In this document: positions 3,566-51,765 of the stretch, in pieces
Layout of the letters: each line of letters begins with the position of its first letter
Numbering within the stretch: position 1 is the stretch's first letter
IMG/VR virus record: IMGVR_UViG_3300038962_000198
Span: 1 to 61,781 of that record
Source of the DNA: a virus
Taxonomy: Duplodnaviria > Caudoviricetes
Length of the DNA stretch: 61,781 nucleotides
Strand: one strand, 5' to 3'
Translations under genes and position numbers: made by a program
Notes under the pieces: generated by a model
Told to the model about the DNA's origin: nothing
What the model saw: the letters and a program-made list of their open reading frames with translations, nothing else
Database searches by the model: none

Positions 3566-6500
3566 ATGGCATGTCCAACTATTCCGGGAGCTAAGTTTCT
3601 TGGCTGTAGCGTTGTTGATTTTAGTGCTTCGGCAGGATGGGGAGCGCAAAGCTCTGAGGTTACAATTAATCTAGTTGCAGATTGCGCAGAAGTTTTTATT
3701 CAGCCTCTTGTTGGTTCAGCTCACACCTTTAAAATTGGTGACGAAAATGGAGACTTTAGTTTTACCGGGTTGATACAATCATGGAATACTAGAGCTGGTT
3801 CCGATGGTCTTCTATATACCATAAAACTTATTTCTCCTCATCCTATATTGGATAATGCCCAAATTATCTTAGATAACTATCAAGATGATGTTAAACTTAA
3901 GAACATAATTAATGTATATGCCCATTTAGAATTTTTAACTGGAAATTGCGGTCAAAATTTCTATGGTAACGCAGTTTTTGGTTCTATGGCTCATGGGTTT
4001 GGTGGCTCTAGAAAAACAGCTCGTGGTATTCCATGGCCTTTGATTCGACATTCTCTGCAAGACTTAGTAGGTGGAGGTGAAAGTTCAAATCCAGTATACT
4101 GTAAAGGGTTGGAACTTGCAGGTGTTCAATATATTTTAGATATTTCAGACATTCCTTTGTCTGATTATAATTATCGTCTTATTGGGCCTACTATGTCTTT
4201 AACTGACCTTATCAATCAGGTTTGTGAGGACGCTGGATGTGATTATTATATTGAGCTATTAGATCCTAATATGAGTAATGCGGCTGGAATGCCGGTAGGT
4301 ATTATTAAGGTTGTTACTATAACAAGACAGAATGTTCCGGCGTTGGGCGCAATTTATAAGTTTGTAAATGAAGATCATAACGGGCAAGTTATTAGTAACG
4401 CTATAGGCCAAGAGCTACGTTCAGAAGTTAACAATGTATTGCTTATTGGTGGAAAAGTTAAACAATATTATCAGTGTTGGAATTCAAATCATATGACTCC
4501 TTTTTGGGGATGGAATACACAAGGATTTTTACTCAAATCTTTTCATACAGGCCAACCAAATGGATGGCAGGTAGAATTAGACTTTCGCGCTATTAACTTA
4601 ACTCTTTCCACCCCCACCGGTTTCACATTCGGTTGGGTTGGTGAAAATGAATTACGTGCTGCGGCAGGTGACTATGAAAGCTTTCAAGCATATATTCTAA
4701 GCGGTACTGAACCGAGCAGCGTTCTTCTGCAATATTTAAGGGACAGTCTGAGTTTATCGATTCCTTTTGACAGTAAAAAATGGGCTCCAAATGCAGTTCA
4801 AGATGCTAAGATTAATGCTCCAGATAATGATAATACTGGCGATCCAGCGTCTAGCAGTATTAGAGACGCCAAGGCTTTGCACCATTGGTTAAATTCTTAT
4901 GCATCTCAAGTCTATGGTAAACAATTTGTTGCAGGTTTTACGATAGGGACAGCAGTTTGTATATCTAGAGACTCTGAGACTGGAGAGGTTATATATAGCG
5001 ATGAAGTTTCTACTGATGGTGGATGGGCTAGTGCTGGCTTACTCTGGCAGAATGCTTCCGACATTTTAGGCATACCTAATCCAAGCGCACAAGCAGATCG
5101 CTTTAAGGATTTGACTGGTAAAGTACAGCCAATGGTCATGTTTGATGGTGGTCAAACTCAAATTAATACTAAAGGTCTTAGTAGTGACGATTATATTGTA
5201 GATGGGAATAGAATATGGATCAAGGCTACCGTACATGATAAATGGATATGGGGAACACCGCTCAATCCAGATGGTACTGCAAGTACGATTTTGTGTGCTC
5301 TGGTAACTATATCCAATCCTGTTACTAACGATGAGTGGACTGAAAGCTCAATGTCGTCATGTCGTCCTGTGGATAGTTTTAATCCTAACGGTCTTTTGAA
5401 TGTTGATCCTGTCGTTTCATATCAGGGCAGTGATGTTGGTGTGGGTAAGTACAATGTGGGTGGTCAGAGTCAAATGATCAGTGCTCTTGGCGACTCTTAC
5501 ATGACTTTCCCTCGTGCTATGGGAGTTCCAATGAAAAGTAATACCACTTCTTATGCTCCGTGGTGGAAGGCAGGTGTAAGTGCCGGTACTACACAAGTAG
5601 AAGTGGATGAGGGTTTGACACCGTGGGAATATGGTGGTTTTAATGCAATGGCTGCTGCTGGATGGGCTAAAGTAAGTAACGCTTGGACGCAGCAACAAAT
5701 GCTAGATCGTGGCGCCGTTACGATTCCCGGTACACCTTCTCTATCTCTAGCTCAAAATATTGATGGTGGTGGTGTCTTAACCGCACGAGGACGAATGGTG
5801 GCATCAGTACCCGGAACCAATCGGACTTATTCCTATTATAGTTATCAGTCTAGTACCCGCAATGGAGCTGCTATTATATCCAATATTAGTACTTCCGCAG
5901 GTGAGGGTGGAGTTACTACCACTTATACTGTTAATAGCTTTACTCCTGTTTTTGGTAGGTTTTCTAGACAAAATGCACAACGAATTAAACAAATTGGATT
6001 AAATAGACAGAGAGGGGAACGAGATCTCAGAGCTAGTGCTGCTTTAAGAAATTTACTTGTAGCATCCGAAAACCGTACAAATTTAGCCAATGCAGCGTCC
6101 GCAGCAGCCGAAGATATTTCTAAGGGAGCTTTAGCTCCTAAAACTCCTGCGATAACATTCGTTGGTAAAAGAACTGGTCATGACTCTGCATCGCATCAAC
6201 GAAATCTCGTTGTTGCTCCTACCAAAAACGATATGGTTTATTATGCGAAGTCTGAGTTTCAAAAAACAGCAGCCGTTACTATGGATGCGATATTTAGGCC
6301 TGTGCAATCACCCGGTAGTAATGATGGTGGTTTAGCGAAAGTAAATACGAATGATAATGAATGTTTCCTTACTAATAATAGTCAAACTACTGGGCCTCCT
6401 CCTCCCATTATAGACCACAAACCTTTAAAGATTACTGCTAAATATCTTGATTTTCTTACTAATCCAAAAGATGATGGTGATTTTACATCCTCCACAAGTT

Positions 6501-26208: not shown

Positions 26209-27852
26209 CTAAACTAGATTTTTGATCTTAGAAACTGATTTTATTATGAAACTTCCCCGTTTTGTATCCCTACTACCAATCAGCAAAGCTATTTGTCCTT
26301 CTTTCGTATCTTTTTTATATTTGTCCCACTCATCGGAAAACATAGTAATATTATCCAAGCTGCATGTACCATCACTAATCGTGAGAAATGCCATTTTCTG
26401 TCCTTTGGAATTACCTTTTTTAATTTTCCACTCTCTTATATAGTCAATTTGAGCCGCAATACGTATACCTTTTTGAGAATTAAAGCCATCAATATACTCT
26501 TTACAGGTACAGTTAGCACGACTAGTATCATATTCATCAACCCTAGCACATGTTAATGCTACGCCTAAATAGTGTTCTTCTTTTCGGGCTTTCCACCCCG
26601 GTAGATCAACGAGATCGTACCCCGGATTATTTAAAGACTCAACTATACTTTCAACTACTTCTATGCGGTCTCGTCGAAATATGGGTCGCTTTCTATCTGA
26701 CCAGTCATTATGATCAATCATAGCCTGAATACATTGCGATAGAGTCTTGTCTATATTGTTTTGTTTATACGTTTCTAGCCACGGAATTTCTCTTTTGCTT
26801 AATTCTCGAAACATTTTCAATTCATGCAACATCTTACTTCGGCTTACATTAAAGCGATCTAAAGCGCCGCTTAGAATAATAGCTTCAAATGAGTCGGCTT
26901 TAATACACAACCCAAAGAAAATAAGAAAAGTGCTCCAGCTACAGGTATCTAAATCGATTTGATGCTTCTGTAGACATCCTAACATTTTATCAAAAACTGA
27001 ACCTCCTACTGTTTTGATTTCTGTAAGCCCAAAGGTGGGATTCTTATCAATAAGGGTGAAGTACTTATTCATTTTTTGAATATTGGGTGGCTTAACATCA
27101 ATATCCATTACGCGAGCATTGTTAACTAATTCTTCTATTTCTAGGTAAGCATCGGGTTTGCCAATAGAATTTTTCAAATAGGAGGTAAAAAATTCATGAG
27201 GAAAATGAGCTTTTGTATATGCGGTTAAGTAGGAATTATATGCATAACTAACTGAGTGTGACTTATTAAAAGAATATCTTTGTGACTTTTCTATCCAGCT
27301 AAATATTTCTTTGGCCTGTTCTTTTGTTACGGTTCCTTTTTCTTCAGCCTTGGTAATAAAGTCTTTTCTCAGATTCGTCATTAAGCTTACATTCTTTTTA
27401 CCAATAGCTTTACGGAGAATGTCAGCTTCCTGTAAGTCAAAACCTCCAATGTCTCTTGCAATTAGCAATGCCTGTTCTTGATAAACTAAGATGCCATATG
27501 TACTAATAAGAATCGGTTTGAGTGCATCATGAAAGTATTCTACTGGATCTATGCCATGCTTACGGTCTATGTAGTGCTGTGTAAGACTTTTACCATCGAC
27601 GATAGCTTCCATACATCCGGGTCTGATAATAGCAATTAAATCAGACAGCTCCTCGATATTACGAGGCTTAACTCGTTCAGCCATACTTCTTCCAAGCTGA
27701 GATTCTAATTGAAATACACCCTTAGTATTTCCACTACAGATTAGATCCCAACTAGCCGTACAGTCTAGCGGTAATTGTTCAATATCCGGCGTATATTGTA
27801 TACAATTATCCGCAATCTCAAAAGTACATCCGCAAGCAAATTCCTTGTTCAT
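26209..27852 (-). CDS. dnaE: DNA polymerase III alpha (DnaE), C-terminal half (fingers, HhH, OB)
   Basis: GVFQLES, IAIIRPG, TYGILVYQEQ, ADILRKAIGKK, YSFNKSHSVSY, PPNI and KGQKMAFLTISD motifs. Confidence 0.93.
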   Translation of the reverse strand: MNKEFACGCTFEIADNCIQYTPDIEQLPLDCTASWDLICSGNTKGVFQLESQLGRSMAERVKPRNIEELSDLIAIIRPGCMEAIVDGKSLTQHYIDRKHGIDPVEYFHDALKPILISTYGILVYQEQALLIARDIGGFDLQEADILRKAIGKKNVSLMTNLRKDFITKAEEKGTVTKEQAKEIFSWIEKSQRYSFNKSHSVSYAYNSYLTAYTKAHFPHEFFTSYLKNSIGKPDAYLEIEELVNNARVMDIDVKPPNIQKMNKYFTLIDKNPTFGLTEIKTVGGSVFDKMLGCLQKHQIDLDTCSWSTFLIFFGLCIKADSFEAIILSGALDRFNVSRSKMLHELKMFRELSKREIPWLETYKQNNIDKTLSQCIQAMIDHNDWSDRKRPIFRRDRIEVVESIVESLNNPGYDLVDLPGWKARKEEHYLGVALTCARVDEYDTSRANCTCKEYIDGFNSQKGIRIAAQIDYIREWKIKKGNSKGQKMAFLTISDGTCSLDNITMFSDEWDKYKKDTKEGQIALLIGSRDTKRGSFIIKSVSKIKNLV

Positions 27853-28523
27853 TTTGTTGACATTGCCCCTTTAAATTTTGCTACGCTAGATTGTCGTCTA
27901 TGGAATTTAATAAATTGTGTTAATAGTTTTGCACTATCTATTGTATCAGAATATGCTTCGTGCGCCTGCTCAGCTTTCACACCAAAAAAATCTCTCATAG
28001 TATCAAGTCGCATATTTTTTGGTTCATCAAGATTTTCAAACCAATAAAATAGCAGGTCCATTAGATCCATTTTATTTACTTTGGCAAACGGCATTGGCGT
28101 TTTATGCTTTTTGGCTAACCGTTCACAAATAGGCAAATCAAAGCCAATAATGTTATAGCCAGCAGCAATAGGTTCTGTATACCAATTTCCATATGATTTT
28201 TCAATATGAAATTTTTTACAATATTCGCAAAAGTTTTTCCAAGCAATTTTCTCGCTTTTACCTTTCTTCCATGCAGCTACTATGTCAGCGCTATCAACAC
28301 CACGTTGTTTAGCGTGCCACTCAATGGTCTTTTGACGTTCGTCTGTAAAGTAGTCTTCTTTTGTTATACCCGGAGGTTTAATGACAGTACTAAAAGCCTT
28401 ATCTGTTTTGATTTCTAAAGTTCGAGGTTCTATAGGAACTGCCGCTAATTCGACAGGATTGCAAGTGTTAGGATCAGTACCATCGGTCTCCCAATCAAAA
28501 ACTATAATCCAGCGATTATTCAT
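27849..28523 (-). CDS. DnaQ-like DEDDh 3'-5' exonuclease (proofreading subunit candidate)
   Basis: ExoI FDWETDG, ExoII GYNIIGFD and ExoIII AHEAYSD motifs. Confidence 0.9.
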   Translation of the reverse strand: MNNRWIIVFDWETDGTDPNTCNPVELAAVPIEPRTLEIKTDKAFSTVIKPPGITKEDYFTDERQKTIEWHAKQRGVDSADIVAAWKKGKSEKIAWKNFCEYCKKFHIEKSYGNWYTEPIAAGYNIIGFDLPICERLAKKHKTPMPFAKVNKMDLMDLLFYWFENLDEPKNMRLDTMRDFFGVKAEQAHEAYSDTIDSAKLLTQFIKFHRRQSSVAKFKGAMSTK

Positions 28524-28532
28524 TTTGCACCT

Positions 28533-30398
28533 TTATTGTTTGTTAAGTATAAGTGGAACTTCCATAATTTTATCTAGCATCCTAATTCCCAATACGTCTA
28601 ATTTCAGCAATCCTACATCCTCGCAACTTGGTCCTTCAAATCCCGCAAGTAAGTCCTTCTCTCCTTTATTGGCTGACTTAACCATAGGGCACGTATCCGA
28701 TATAGGGGATGGAGATACAACCACACCAGCAGCATGTTTAGATTGTATAATTTTTGTTCCTTCCATACGCATAGCTTGTTCAAAAATACGCGCCATTTTA
28801 CCTTCCAGTTTTCCATCTTCTCCTATTTCACACCAATCTTTTAATTGGTCTTTTCTGTTTTTAAGAGCCCATAAAATTAAAGATGCTTCTCCTAACTCTT
28901 CTTTCATGTCTTGAAGTTCATCGGCAATTTTAGCTTCGTCCATGATATGTTTAGTAATTTCATTCTGTTCTGTAAATGATATATTTCCTCGTGCTTGCAT
29001 TACCCGTTTGAGAGCAGAACGACCTTGTAGTGTTTGATAAGTAACAATTTGTGCTACGTTCGCTTTGCCGTACTTTTGTTTCATATAGTCAATAACTTTT
29101 TCTCTAGCTTCTTTAGGTACATCAAGATCAATATCGGGCATAGAGATTCGTTCTTCTGTGTTTCTACCCGCATTGTAAAATCTTTCAAAAACTAAATCAT
29201 ATTTAATGGGATCAATTTGAGTAATTCCGATCAAATAAGAAACCATACATCCTGCTGCGCTACCCCTGCCGGGACCAGTTAAGTAGCCTTCATGTTTACA
29301 ATATTTAAGAATATCTTGAACAATAAGAAAGTAACTAGATAAACCTGCTTCTTCAAATACTTCTAACTCTCTATTAACACGATCTCCATAGCGTTCAAAG
29401 TCTTCAGTATTCTTTTGGACATGACCCATTTTTTCAGCCCATCCCAATTTACATAAATGTCGTAAATATTCTCGTGGATTATATCCGGCAGGGGCTTTAA
29501 ATTCGGGAGGATTAGGTGCGCCTAAAATATTATATTGTTCACACATAGAGGCAATTTTAATTGTATTGTCTAATTCTTCATCGGTATGAAACATTTTCAT
29601 GTCTTCATACGATGGTATATGGTAATTGTTAGAGGCAAAGAACGAGCTTAATGATTTAGATTTGCCTTCTTTTAATTCTTGTCGGACTTGTCCTATCGTC
29701 TTTTTTAAAGACGTACACAGTAGTACCTGTTGGTCTTCTGCCGCCTCTCTGGTAGGGTAATGAGCATCGGGAGTTGCAACACATGGAATGTCAGTTTGCT
29801 TAGAAATTTCTCGCAATCGTTCAGCGACTATACGAGCGCTTTCATTGTTTTGCGAATCTATTAATTGAATTTCAATAAAAAAATTGTCTCGACCAAACAT
29901 GTTTTGTAATCGATGAGCTGCCTCACAAATAAACTTATCAGATTTATTCTCTAGAGCAACGTTACCCAAATAAGATCCTAAGTGACCACTAAATGAAATT
30001 AGATTGCCAGAAGATGCCGCCTCTCGTAATTGGTTAAAGTCAATACGAGGCTTATAATAAAATTGATCAGCATTATTAGATTGAGAAACCAAGCCGAGAA
30101 TATCTTTCCACCCCTGTAGGTTTTTGGCTAACACTACTTGGTGAATTAACTTTCTATTTTCAGATGTTTTTTCTGTAACATCTTTCTCTGATAAATAAAA
30201 CTCACATCCTAAGATTTGTTTTTGTGATGCACCCTTAAGAGTTCTGCAAAAATCTACAGCGCCTGATACTGTACCGTGATCGGTGAGCGCGCAAGTGTCT
30301 ATTTCTATATCGTTTAGTCTTTTAGAAATTTGAGAGGCTTGTGAAAGTCCATCTAGTAAACTATATTCAGAATGGACATGCAATGGAACGTAGGTCAT
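28533..30398 (-). CDS. dnaE: DNA polymerase III alpha (DnaE), N-terminal half (PHP and palm/thumb)
   Basis: LHVHSEYSLLDG, ALTDHG, DAHY, GPGRGSAAG, MPDIDLD, SKHAAGVV and GLLKLDVLG motifs. Confidence 0.95.
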   Translation of the reverse strand: MTYVPLHVHSEYSLLDGLSQASQISKRLNDIEIDTCALTDHGTVSGAVDFCRTLKGASQKQILGCEFYLSEKDVTEKTSENRKLIHQVVLAKNLQGWKDILGLVSQSNNADQFYYKPRIDFNQLREAASSGNLISFSGHLGSYLGNVALENKSDKFICEAAHRLQNMFGRDNFFIEIQLIDSQNNESARIVAERLREISKQTDIPCVATPDAHYPTREAAEDQQVLLCTSLKKTIGQVRQELKEGKSKSLSSFFASNNYHIPSYEDMKMFHTDEELDNTIKIASMCEQYNILGAPNPPEFKAPAGYNPREYLRHLCKLGWAEKMGHVQKNTEDFERYGDRVNRELEVFEEAGLSSYFLIVQDILKYCKHEGYLTGPGRGSAAGCMVSYLIGITQIDPIKYDLVFERFYNAGRNTEERISMPDIDLDVPKEAREKVIDYMKQKYGKANVAQIVTYQTLQGRSALKRVMQARGNISFTEQNEITKHIMDEAKIADELQDMKEELGEASLILWALKNRKDQLKDWCEIGEDGKLEGKMARIFEQAMRMEGTKIIQSKHAAGVVVSPSPISDTCPMVKSANKGEKDLLAGFEGPSCEDVGLLKLDVLGIRMLDKIMEVPLILNKQ

Positions 30399-30886
30399 TT
30401 CCTTCTCCTAAAGTTGCGTAATTCTGATATCGGCACATTGTAACAATCGGCTTTAACCATAAACCCATTGGAACGATCAATCTCTCCTCGATTAAGTTTT
30501 TCTGCTTTTTCAAAATATTCATCGTGCTCTAACCATCCCAAAACCCATGCCCTTCCCCATTTTCCATTTACCCATTCTATACGAACAAAAGCGTATCGGT
30601 CACACTTCTGTTTAGTATTATACGCCGCAACCGAACACTCGTAGTGAGATTTTGGTGGAGAAGTGCATCTTTTAGTTTTCACATCATATTTAATATTTTT
30701 ATAAACTATATCGTAATTATAAGTGTTAGTAACCTCTCCTTTTATCAGGGCGTTTGCAATTTCCTCTCCCAAAAATCCCGCTATATTTCCCTGTCCTCTC
30801 GTAATAGAGTTTTTCAACTTGCCCATTTTACGCGCTTTGGCCCATGCTCGTTTTTTCATTTGCGGCGTTATTTTAACTTCTATCAA
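30395..30886 (-). CDS. Putative PD-(D/E)XK-type endonuclease
   Basis: GFLGEE...YDIV...YDVKTK pattern. SD AGGAG upstream of a TTG start. Confidence 0.55.
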   Translation of the reverse strand: MIEVKITPQMKKRAWAKARKMGKLKNSITRGQGNIAGFLGEEIANALIKGEVTNTYNYDIVYKNIKYDVKTKRCTSPPKSHYECSVAAYNTKQKCDRYAFVRIEWVNGKWGRAWVLGWLEHDEYFEKAEKLNRGEIDRSNGFMVKADCYNVPISELRNFRRRK

Positions 30887-30904
30887 TTTATATCTCCTAT
30901 ATTT

Positions 30905-31157
30905 AAAAAACCCCGTTTAACGTTACATGAGCTTAAGCAAAGGCCGGGGTTCCACCTTACTTTTATGGCAACTCAAGGACCATTGTTATGTATTAATGTC
31001 CCGTTTATTCTCGAATGAGTTTAAGCAAAAGTCGGGACCACACTCTGCTTCTGGCAACTCATGACCTAGTTGTAAATTAAAGCCGCCTTAGCTGCTCATT
31101 GGTATTGGTGTCAGGCGACGGCAACCTGTACCCTTTGGCTACCAACGAAACCTAGTT
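30905..31157 (-). ncRNA. Array of three tandem ~70-nt pseudoknotted RNA elements (unassigned family)
   Basis: Units at 31082-31152, 30998-31066 and 30909-30981. Each reads GGU..P1-GCCA-P2-(9-nt loop)-P2'-P1'..UAA-pseudoknot strand. Loop/3' pairings are GCCGUC:GGCGGC, GUCCCG:CGGGAC and AACCCCG:CGGGGUU. G-U wobbles favour the - strand. Confidence 0.7.
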
Positions 31158-32226
31158 ATACTTCTCCCGGCGCTTGATAAGTTCCTATTACATGTTCGGG
31201 ATGAGAACAATTATTAGTTACCCAATCAATTCCATATTTTTTAATCATATATCTCGTTTGTTCGCACTTGGTCATAGGTTGTCCATAAGGAGTTTTCTGT
31301 CTAGGGCGGTGTTCTTTTATAGACTCAACATGTGTATCTTCAAAAGTACTCATCCCTTGATGGCATAGCTTTGTACATTTCCATGATTGCTTAGGATCTA
31401 TTTGTCTAATAGTTTTAGGCTCATCTGTATTCTTAATAAATTGAAATTTTTGCTTTAACATTTCTTCTGTGTCTTTTAAGTCTTCATCTTGAAATTGCAA
31501 TGTAAATGCACCACCATCATTAATAAAAATAATAGTAATTATAAACGCTTTGACATCTGGAAACATTTGTTTCATGGCATAGTGATAGATCCGTAGTTGT
31601 GCGTCATTAAACAAGCTGGCTTGTGTTTTTTCTTTACCTGTTGCCCAATCCAGTCTTCTGCCAGTTTTCCAATCTATAACCTCATAAACCCCATCTCCTA
31701 AATCGGTTACAAGATCTATAGTTCCTTTCATGGCTACGTTACCAATTAATTTTTGGTCATCGACATCATATTCATAAGATGCCCAATCCTTATCGATAAC
31801 AAAATCAAAGCGGGGTTCGGCAGCGACTACATTTCTATTACGAGGATCAAAAGACCCATCGTTAAGTTGTAGCGCTTTCCAAGCCCACAATTGACAATCT
31901 TTAGCATCTTTATCTGTCCATGTATGATGAGGGATGCGACTTGTGTAGTACTCATAAACTCTGGCGGCTATTTTGTTTAGATATTCTGGTTTATAATTAC
32001 TAGTACTAACCCTACCAATATGCTCGTCTACAATAATTTTTTTACCGTCTTGTGCTCCCTTTTTAGCTACTGCACATATTTCTAATACTTTGTGTACGAT
32101 AGTGCCTTTGTCGGCTTTTTTATTAGATGGACCTCTCCAACCTAGAGTATATTCCATATAATATTGCATCGGGCAAAATCGATGACAATTAAAAGATGAC
32201 GATCTAAAATATACAATAGGGATCAT
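31156..32226 (-). CDS. RecB/Cas4-like PD-(D/E)XK exonuclease
   Basis: N-terminal CPMQYY, GTIVH, AAE, KGTIDLV, VIDWKTG, QLRIYH and C-terminal CTKLC...C (possible Fe-S ligands). Confidence 0.85.
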   Translation of the reverse strand: MIPIVYFRSSSFNCHRFCPMQYYMEYTLGWRGPSNKKADKGTIVHKVLEICAVAKKGAQDGKKIIVDEHIGRVSTSNYKPEYLNKIAARVYEYYTSRIPHHTWTDKDAKDCQLWAWKALQLNDGSFDPRNRNVVAAEPRFDFVIDKDWASYEYDVDDQKLIGNVAMKGTIDLVTDLGDGVYEVIDWKTGRRLDWATGKEKTQASLFNDAQLRIYHYAMKQMFPDVKAFIITIIFINDGGAFTLQFQDEDLKDTEEMLKQKFQFIKNTDEPKTIRQIDPKQSWKCTKLCHQGMSTFEDTHVESIKEHRPRQKTPYGQPMTKCEQTRYMIKKYGIDWVTNNCSHPEHVIGTYQAPGEV

Positions 32227-32633
32227 ATTTTATTTCCATAACGATCTTTACCTTGTAAATTATTTACTTCTCTCCAAACCTGACCCCATCCATCTTTGTT
32301 GTCTCCTTCCACTCTGGCGGCTTTGTCGTCAATATATAAGGCAGCGGCAGGTTTGCCCATGAAAGCATGGTGATATTTTACACCGTGTTTTGCTAGCCAA
32401 TCAGTCCACTCACGATACCCTCGGTCGTATTGTAAGTGTATATTTCCTTGCTCTCGATCTCCATATCTGGCAGTATACAGAACGATAGTATATCCTTTCT
32501 CATATAGATTATTTACCTGCTCTATCCCATAGTGTAAAGGGCCAGCTTTGCTATAATCCCCACCGTGCGCTTTGTCTGCAATTACCCCATCACAATCTAT
32601 ACTTAAAACATTAGACGACTCTGGTAAAGGCAT
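32223..32633 (-). CDS. HAD-superfamily phosphatase (capless, small)
   Basis: IDCDGVI, YTAR and MGKP...YIDDK motifs. Confidence 0.85.
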   Translation of the reverse strand: MPLPESSNVLSIDCDGVIADKAHGGDYSKAGPLHYGIEQVNNLYEKGYTIVLYTARYGDREQGNIHLQYDRGYREWTDWLAKHGVKYHHAFMGKPAAALYIDDKAARVEGDNKDGWGQVWREVNNLQGKDRYGNKI

Positions 32634-51423: not shown

Positions 51424-51432
51424 TTAAATCTC

Positions 51433-51660
51433 CTACTTTAATAGATTGCGATATCTCAAAGCCTTTCTTGCGAGACGACGTGCGTACGTAGAACCGTGAG
51501 TCCGAACAAGCTTGCGAAATTCACCTGCCTTATCCGTATTGGCAAAGCAGGCCGTTGTACACTTGGCACTTGTTTCGCCAACGGCAAATTTGTTGAGAGT
51601 TTTAACACCGCATTTGCTAGATAATAGCAGGTTCCAGTCGGTAGTAGTCGTGTCCTTCAT
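51433..51660 (-). CDS. Hypothetical basic protein
   Basis: 75 aa with a strong SD (AAGGAGGAG) upstream. Confidence 0.65.
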   Translation of the reverse strand: MKDTTTTDWNLLLSSKCGVKTLNKFAVGETSAKCTTACFANTDKAGEFRKLVRTHGSTYARRLARKALRYRNLLK

Positions 51661-51765
51661 GTTCTCCTCCTTTGTCTTGGGTTGTAATGATGACTGACTA
51701 ATCTTGATGCCGATGCAATATTATACTCGCCTTTTTCCTGAAGAGGGTCAAAATTTTGAAAATTT

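Follow-up and report, generated by a model that had tools for sequence, protein, structure and literature searches.

We analysed the complete 61,781-bp IMG/VR record IMGVR_UViG_3300038962_000198 (Duplodnaviria; Caudoviricetes; hereafter the window), in which the replication module contains, on the – strand, a tandem array of three pseudoknotted RNA units (A, B, and C). Genes run on one strand for ~48 kb around the array. Those before it encode, in this order, a DnaB-like helicase, a primase, a deoxynucleoside monophosphate kinase, a HAD-like phosphatase, and a PD-(D/E)XK (Cas4/RecB-like) exonuclease, and those after it encode a 163-amino-acid (163-aa) protein and then a DnaE polymerase. The three units fill the 269-nt gap (30887–31155) between the exonuclease and 163-aa genes. 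The stop codon of the exonuclease gene (31158–31156) directly adjoins the lead of unit A, and the array spans from 6 nt after this stop codon to 10 nt before the Shine–Dalgarno (SD) sequence of the next gene. This placement recurs in every relative that has a single unit: counting the window as well, a unit or array always begins 6–8 nt past the stop codon of the exonuclease gene, and 7–10 nt separate its end from the SD.

The array had been proposed by a model from the letters of the sequence (the original prediction). Reading the – strand directly, we found every helix listed in that prediction, the residues it described as common to all three units (an AAC..GGU lead, a GCCA junction, a 9-nt loop ending in CG, and UAA before the pairing strand), and the AU-rich linkers between the units. 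Each unit is 85–90 nt long and consists, from 5′ to 3′, of a GG-containing lead, the 5′ strand of stem P1 (6–10 bp), a 5–7 nt junction starting with GCCA, the 5′ strand of stem P2, a 9-nt loop, the 3′ strand of P2, 1–2 nt, the 3′ strand of P1, a 7–11 nt linker ending in UAA(A), and a strand of 6–7 nt complementary to the loop (Table 1). P2 has 7–9 bp, with a single bulged base in its 3′ strand or, in unit A, a 1 × 2 internal loop; this stem of unit A is additional to the helices of the original prediction. All stem pairs are canonical in unit A (17/17, two of them G.U) and in unit B (16/16). An AU-rich spacer follows unit A up to unit B. Units B and C have in common a 37-nt direct repeat (76%) and a 13-nt repeat (92%), and units A and B only an 11-nt lead. 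Approximately eight unpaired residues (GG, GCCR, and AA) are conserved, and this set is partly variable (GCCA versus GCCG or UCCG).

Table 1. Positions of the array, its helices, and the neighbouring genes in the window.
Feature	Position	Strand	Details
Exonuclease gene (upstream)	31156–32226	–	PD-(D/E)XK (Cas4/RecB-like); Pfam PF12705, E 1.2e-19; PHROG exonuclease; Cas4 models
Unit A	31071–31155	–	lead 31155–31150, contains GG
Unit A P1	31149–31140 / 31104–31095	–	10 bp, 2 G.U
Unit A junction	31139–31133	–	GCCA...
Unit A P2	31132–31125 / 31115–31107	–	3 bp, 1 × 2 internal loop, 4 bp
Unit A loop	31124–31116	–	
Unit A pseudoknot	31122–31117 : 31087–31082	–	linker before pairing strand ends UAA
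Unit B	30985–31070	–	lead 31070–31063
Unit B P1	31062–31056 / 31021–31015	–	
Unit B junction	31055–31051	–	GCCAG
Unit B P2	31050–31042 / 31032–31023	–	one bulged U
Unit B loop	31041–31033	–	
Unit B pseudoknot	31038–31033 : 31003–30998	–	
Unit C	30895–30984	–	lead 30984–30978
Unit C P1	30977–30970 / 30933–30926	–	one U.U
Unit C junction	30969–30963	–	GCCAUAA
Unit C P2	30962–30954 / 30944–30935	–	one bulged U
Unit C loop	30953–30945	–	
Unit C pseudoknot	30951–30945 : 30915–30909	–	followed by a U run
SD of downstream gene	30898–30894	–	AGGAG; after the U run of unit C
163-aa protein gene (downstream)	30395–30886	–	TTG start, SD 7 nt upstream
DnaE N part	28533–30398	–	PHP and NTPase domains
RNase T-like exonuclease ORF	27849–28523	–	between the two DnaE parts
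DnaE C part	26209–27852	–	finger, HhH, and OB domains

The loop of each unit pairs best with its own tail. The duplex formed by loop and tail has a predicted energy of –11.6 kcal/mol in unit A (p 0.004 versus shuffled tails), –11.4 kcal/mol in unit B (p 0.007), and –13.3 kcal/mol in unit C (p 0.0007). Among these units, cognate duplexes thus range from –11.4 to –13.3 kcal/mol versus –4.6 to –7.0 kcal/mol for non-cognate combinations. The three pairs are mutually orthogonal so that neighbouring modules do not cross-pair.

For comparison with related sequences we used a covariance model, R1, built from units B and C and three units of relatives (L081, L083, and L009), with unit A left out. In the gap (272 nt as searched), R1 aligns unit A from end to end with all helices placed (12.4 bits, E 0.0023); over the whole window with filters off, unit A has an E of 0.52 and ranks fifth, below unrelated matches of 14.7 and 13.6 bits. 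Across ten units, 148 of the 150 P1 and P2 stem pairs are canonical. Five of these units carry identical stems and are not independent, so the independent evidence is in the compensatory changes. Units A and B differ by three compensatory double changes in P1 and five in P2, and units B and C by one in P2 and two in the pseudoknot. A G-C pair in P2 has become C-G between the L083 and L081 types, and a U-A pair in the pseudoknot is C-G between L081 and L139. On the antisense strand the number of canonical pairs falls to 143/150. Six of the pairs are G.U and would be mismatches on the opposite strand, which marks the – strand as the sense strand.

Natural variation gave a further view of the fold. 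The entire array is covered by contigs of runs X3 and X4, which come from two other studies and show 22 and 34 differences across 762 nt. Among the best-supported variable positions of the array, which are those listed, 2 of 19 are paired, versus 138 of all 261 positions (hypergeometric 9e-5). Both paired variants retain a pair, and the other 17 listed variants are unpaired. In contigs of four runs, a change at 31046 in unit B turns A-U into G.U. None of the listed variants falls in the strands of the loop–tail pairing. Several of these positions neighbour one another, which brings the count of independent events closer to 8–10 than to 19. That natural variation avoids paired positions points to purifying selection on them. 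Together with the compensatory changes and the cognate loop–tail pairing, these data support the idea, put forward in the original prediction, that selection acts on RNA structure at this locus. We consider it highly probable that a genuine structured RNA motif is present. The support for the fold is comparative, and comes from neither thermodynamics nor topology alone.

To see how widely the motif occurs, we turned to relatives of the 163-aa gene, which come from marine metagenomes and number 256 in IMG/VR and 251 in a metagenome collection. Searching with R1 gave 4 loci with a unit among 100 IMG/VR loci, and six units (five strong, and L137 at 32 bits) plus a partial match in L138 among 80 metagenome loci; some of the unit-bearing records are the same contig in both collections. 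A covariance-model search had been proposed with the original prediction, and with R1 it found homologous single units, which sit at the same locus and in the same gap. The relatives yield five further distinct unit sequences and the L137 variant, in which (935–1043) an extra 4-bp hairpin in the P1–P2 junction produces a three-way junction. The element is present in loci at 99%, 95%, 87%, and 84–86% protein identity and absent from loci at 96%, 92%, and 88%, and the number of units per contig is 0, 1, or 3. In contigs of run X9, unit A is missing from some forms and unit C from others; B-like units, which in run X9 variants have the tail CGGGGC, occur alone or last in these contigs and in L138, where as in the forms lacking unit C the B-like unit stands beside the SD. 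The whole array is skipped in forms from runs X2, X4, and X9. Most relatives encode the 163-aa protein without any array, and direct reading of the loci showed that in most of them the 163-aa gene starts within, or right next to, the stop codon of the gene before it.

Searches for the motif elsewhere were negative. With filters off, R1 found no copy in the window beyond the three units, and in five related records searched whole it found only the known copy, in two of the five. A first pattern scan of IMG/VR gave 19 stretches, of which 3 are known contigs and 16, in three groups, are coding-like with at most 15.1 bits; a second gave 5, four of them known contigs and the fifth, L211, at 9.2 bits. 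An IMG/VR scan with an A-type pattern gave no stretches, and among 20 stretches from a scan of the GTDB genomes none exceeded 15.6 bits. The L211 stretch (4202–4267, – strand, in a 180-kb viral contig) forms an ordinary terminator-like hairpin, on either side of which stand the 14-nt and 8-nt strings that also border P2 of the L083-type unit; this likeness is probably due to chance. With units in the closest relatives only, a patchy distribution, and no further credible copy found, we conclude that the motif is an accessory element of recent origin that varies in copy number and is restricted to a single locus in one clade of marine phages.

The junction between the exonuclease and 163-aa genes is an insertion hot spot, with one or more unrelated ORFs (open reading frames) at this place in some relatives (L084–L098, L030, and L071). 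The upstream ORF of L030 and L071 resembles, by eye, a GIY-YIG homing endonuclease. In L104 and L105 (~3640–3900) the match to the exonuclease homologue ends after residue 208 and is followed by what looks by eye like a LAGLIDADG motif; this insertion may be an intein or a homing endonuclease. The stretch before the array (GGAGA..GUAUAA, 31158–31147) resembles the stretch from SD to start codon after it (GGAGAUAUAAA, 30898–30884), and a similar likeness of the flanks is seen at the corresponding places in L081 and L083. The flanks could be a duplicate of the original stop/start junction, either from target duplication or merely from a common need for an SD.

With such a junction, a feature acting at the DNA level has to be considered: an origin with iterons, a recombination hot spot, an insertion remnant, or a decaying duplication that has only inherited its structure, none with an RNA function. 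The location in the replication module, the unrelated ORFs inserted at this junction in other relatives, the commonness of the bare topology, and the weakness of the folds would all suit this. However, the compensatory changes and the G.U strand bias are unexpected for protein-bound DNA repeats, natural variation avoids the paired positions, and comparison of the array with the collected related loci by blastn and tblastx gave nothing, including in the relatives' coding sequence. We consider this explanation improbable.

Related records of 53 and 61 kb are 36% and 42% complete according to CheckV, and these estimates suggest that the window is ~40% of a genome near 150 kb. As judged by sequence comparison the nearest cultured phages are very distant: the identity of the DnaE part to them is at most 36%, the 163-aa protein is 39% identical to that of a Ruegeria phage and 46% identical to that of an uncultured Caudoviricetes record, and neither a tblastn search with the exonuclease nor a blastn search with 30700–31400 gave a match in phage records. 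The DnaE-type polymerase of the window is split into two ORFs (26209–30398, – strand), and two adjacent DnaE pieces are also annotated in a Bacillus phage record. The 163-aa gene overlaps the start of the N-terminal part of DnaE (28533–30398); its start codon is TTG in the window and ATG in relatives. The original prediction placed the array in the largest intergenic gap, which holds if a 75-aa ORF at 51433–51660 (– strand) is counted as a gene; otherwise the gap at 51424–51765, most of which this ORF occupies, is larger. The 75-aa ORF has a strong SD, lies upstream of a gene for an SSB-like 132-aa protein, and is missing from the list of ORFs of 80 aa.

We compared the array with known RNA families. 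The original prediction could not assign it to a riboswitch, ribozyme, or tRNA-like family, and this was borne out: Rfam 15 at gathering scores gave 0 matches in the whole window, a search of 30700–31350 with E up to 10 gave three unrelated matches at chance level (E 1.3–8.6), and ARAGORN found no tRNA or tmRNA (transfer-messenger RNA) gene. Literature searches, which did not extend to the supplementary lists of large phage-RNA screens (e.g. PMC10690425), found no description of the motif in print. By these comparisons the motif is a pseudoknot module outside every known family, and it appears not to have been catalogued before.

Compact pseudoknots with few conserved nucleotides and tandem copies in phage intergenic regions are traits of several small ribozyme classes. 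The array has such a compact pseudoknotted fold, ~8 conserved nucleotides, an intergenic phage setting, and tandem copies, and it could be imagined as a new small self-cleaving ribozyme that processes the polycistronic mRNA. We regard this as very improbable. There is no match to an Rfam ribozyme, reading the sequence revealed no hammerhead, twister, pistol, or hepatitis delta virus-like core, and the conserved set is small and, as noted, varies in part.

Coding and transcription signals were also sought. The gap contains no – strand ORF of 40 aa or more, indels of 1 nt occur among the natural variants, and mini-ORFs starting in units A, B, and C are conserved in neither length nor sequence, so coding was rejected. 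Only weak –10-like words are found in the linkers, and a scan found no promoter placed to drive the array. A scan for intrinsic terminators on the – strand between 29500 and 32500 was negative. The helix that precedes the U run of unit C is formed by loop and tail and encloses 29 nt, and units A and B have no U run. These results bear on the idea of a cis-acting transcription element, either an attenuator or terminator made of the loop–tail helix and U run or a processive antitermination RNA in mid-operon, for which HK022 put and the Bacillus eps-associated RNA are analogues. Six U residues do follow the pairing strand in unit C and in L083, and the array lies within the long one-strand run of genes. 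Against this stand the negative scan, the missing U run in the L081-type units as well as in A and B, the long stretch enclosed by the would-be terminator helix, and the want of a matching Rfam family. We therefore hold a transcription element to be decidedly improbable.

The tandem format had also been likened in the original prediction to type III antitoxin arrays, which did not hold up. As in the type III toxin–antitoxin systems (ToxI, CptI, and TenpI), there are tandem pseudoknot-forming RNA units in variable copy number, immediately ahead of a gene whose product has ~160 aa. However, the phage units are divergent and 85–90 nt long, whereas table 2 of PMC3401426 gives near-identical repeats of 31–62 nt for published arrays, and Tandem Repeats Finder with a minimum score of 30 found 0 repeats in the phage array. 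The scans gave the array no promoter of its own and no terminator before the downstream gene. The neighbouring gene is also different, being a core gene for a PD-(D/E)XK DNase-like protein, usually present where there is no array, and in no ToxN/CptN/TenpN or ToxN/AbiQ-type family. No family was found for the 163-aa protein in Pfam, PHROG, PADLOC, or NCBIfam. Its E/D/DxK residues are invariant among relatives, and its structural model (predicted local distance difference test score 85.8) has as best PDB folds NhoI (E 7.5e-5, template-modelling score 0.46) and DpnI, both methyl-dependent restriction endonucleases. From this model it looks like a PD-(D/E)XK-like DNA nuclease.

A related idea is that cuts in the linkers of the operon transcript release stable, trans-acting pseudoknotted RNAs of ~80 nt. 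Their target would be a protein of the host or the phage; they might, for instance, be decoys for a host defence nuclease. Phage pseudo-ToxI repeats are an analogue of such a decoy. The units are modular with conserved single-stranded GG, GCCR, and AA residues, their copy number differs among near-identical strains, and lead and linker sequence is conserved between units (repeat D3), all of which would be expected of such RNAs. By contrast, no partner is evident (the 163-aa neighbour is DNase-like and mostly occurs without an array), the units are not near-identical repeats, and no promoter- or terminator-like site frames them. Sequence-specific recognition by a protein at the pseudoknots is disfavoured because the pseudoknot sequences are wholly different between units. 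Overall, we find a trans-acting role quite unlikely.

Other structured elements between cistrons also offer parallels. Repetitive extragenic palindromic (REP) and bacterial interspersed mosaic elements (BIME), the RNase III sites of T7, and 5′ stabilizers before an SD are simple or internally looped hairpins that vary in sequence and act by shape. Like REP/BIME-type elements, the phage units are structured, variable in sequence, accessory, and copy-variable, and lie between cistrons of one operon; unlike them, they have a conserved pairing from loop to downstream strand and conserved junction residues, and they occur at one locus in one clade. The array might, in this light, be a 3′-end stabilizer or an intercistronic processing signal that stalls 3′–5′ exonucleases or is cut by a double-strand RNase. 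It would thereby stabilize the message for helicase, primase, and exonuclease upstream of it and determine how much upstream product is made relative to downstream product. The array begins right after a stop codon, P1 and P2 form an irregular hairpin of ~16 bp with an internal loop, the modules are in tandem and copy-variable like REP clusters, and AU-rich single-stranded linkers lie between them. A block at the 3′ end, however, needs neither the conserved loop–tail pairing nor the fixed 7–10 nt to the SD. The stems are also weak, and there is no REP-like conserved sequence and no other copy in the window or in the five related records. These points lead us to view this explanation as unlikely.

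Pseudoknots in the leaders of T-even gene 32 and of rpsO (bound by S15) control translation from just 5′ of the ribosome-binding site. The phage array likewise has pseudoknots just before a ribosome-binding site, that of a replication or translation gene, and beside AU-rich single-stranded RNA. It differs in having three tandem units, with SD and start codon outside the fold, and in having no known regulator protein.

The original prediction noted a resemblance to flaviviral exonuclease-resistant RNAs (xrRNAs). The phage units have the same order of elements as flaviviral and plant tombus-/luteoviral xrRNAs, with unpaired 5′ nucleotides, P1, a junction, and an apical loop that pairs downstream of P1; this loop-to-downstream pairing is found in units A, B, and C. 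There is an A-rich run before the pairing strand, copies are in tandem, the pseudoknot sequence is variable and covarying, and the GG before P1 (GG with CC in the junction is found in nine of the ten units, L083 having AG) could with the junction CC mimic the two-nucleotide pairing between 5′ end and junction. A three-way junction is seen in L137 only, through its third hairpin. According to PMC8374639, tandem xrRNAs are common, a ring of ~15–16 nt encircles the RNA's own 5′ end, and plant-virus xrRNAs also lack a three-way junction. One xrRNA is described in PMC5760640 as stopping bacterial RNase J1 in vitro. Unlike xrRNAs, which are found in the 3′ untranslated regions of RNA viruses, the phage units would be in the mRNA of a DNA phage; there is no sequence or Rfam match, and neither the junction residues conserved in xrRNAs nor their base triple could be recognized in the phage units. 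The likeness to xrRNAs, in our analysis, seems to be one of topology only.

If the likeness extended to function, the loop–tail pseudoknot and a GG:CC contact between lead and junction would close a ring around the 5′ side of each module. Decay that depends on a 5′ end, by RNase J or by scanning RNase E, would then be stopped at the entrance to the polymerase genes, and the orthogonal pseudoknots would allow up to three such blocks to fold side by side. We think it unlikely that the modules are the first mechanical roadblocks of the xrRNA type in a bacteriophage.

The explanation that we favour, though only tentatively, is broader: the array may act in cis between cistrons of the mRNA, uncoupling their translation and serving as a structural barrier or stabilizer for the polymerase message. 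On this view the replication operon would be transcribed into a polycistronic sense-strand mRNA that carries three independently folding modules. In each of them P1, an asymmetric GCC(A/G) junction, and a bulged P2 form a long irregular hairpin, which is closed by pairing of the P2 loop with the tail. The array would stand in place of the overlapping stop and start codons by which, in most relatives, the exonuclease gene is coupled to the genes for the 163-aa nuclease and DnaE, bring a new SD, and act as a compact cis barrier immediately 5′ of this SD. After cleavage in the AU-rich linkers, or when decay proceeds from a 5′ end through RNase J or scanning RNase E, the modules would shield and stabilize the polymerase message, and more copies of the unit would make a tighter barrier. 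A cis barrier against 5′-end-dependent decay is favoured because the order of elements is xrRNA-like and RNase J1 is stopped by Xrn1-resistant RNAs (PMC5760640 and PMC8374639). Also in its favour are the exact placement of the units, the overlapping or abutting stop and start codons of relatives that lack them, the compensatory changes and strand bias, the orthogonal pairing, the purifying selection, and the variable number of units.

Several results weigh against the fold itself or against a cis-acting barrier of this kind. The minimum free energy of the whole gap is no lower than that of shuffled sequence (z +0.43), single units have z values from –2.0 to +0.3, and the consensus nested structure reaches only –1.9 to –15.7 kcal/mol, so that the folds are weak. 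A sequence-free descriptor of the topology matched the window 32 times, counting both strands, versus 18.4 ± 4.4 (maximum 27) in 60 block shuffles, and three matches within 280 nt arose in one of the 60. Outside the array lie 29 of the 32 matches, one of them at 31558–31484 inside the exonuclease gene. In the AU-rich L081-type units the loop–tail pairing is not significant when taken alone (p 0.08–0.58). The pairing of lead GG with junction CC has no covariation because these residues are invariant. Compared with flaviviral xrRNAs, nine of the ten phage units have a two-way junction, and compared with xrRNAs in general P1 (7–10 bp) and the linkers (7–11 nt) are longer and the loops have 9–16 nt. 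A role as stabilizer alone leaves the elaborate fold unexplained because a simple stable hairpin would suffice. Any effect is dispensable because close relatives lack the element, and the family is tiny, with one locus in one marine phage clade. No RNA runs carrying 30300–32300 are listed. The weak folds and the GG:CC contact without covariation are among the reasons for our low confidence in the cis barrier.

If the cis-acting intercistronic module is functional, it is a compact RNA device, defined by shape, that can be acquired, lost, and multiplied by a DNA phage between two cistrons, and its pseudoknots diversify so that tandem copies avoid misfolding. Should it block 5′-end-dependent decay, the principle of xrRNAs, which belong to eukaryotic RNA viruses, would hold for phages and bacterial RNases too, and the modules would be small portable insulators or stabilizers for synthetic operons. 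Even if the units are only structural spacers, they would still illustrate how, in phage populations in nature, the insertion of an RNA module takes the place of translational coupling.

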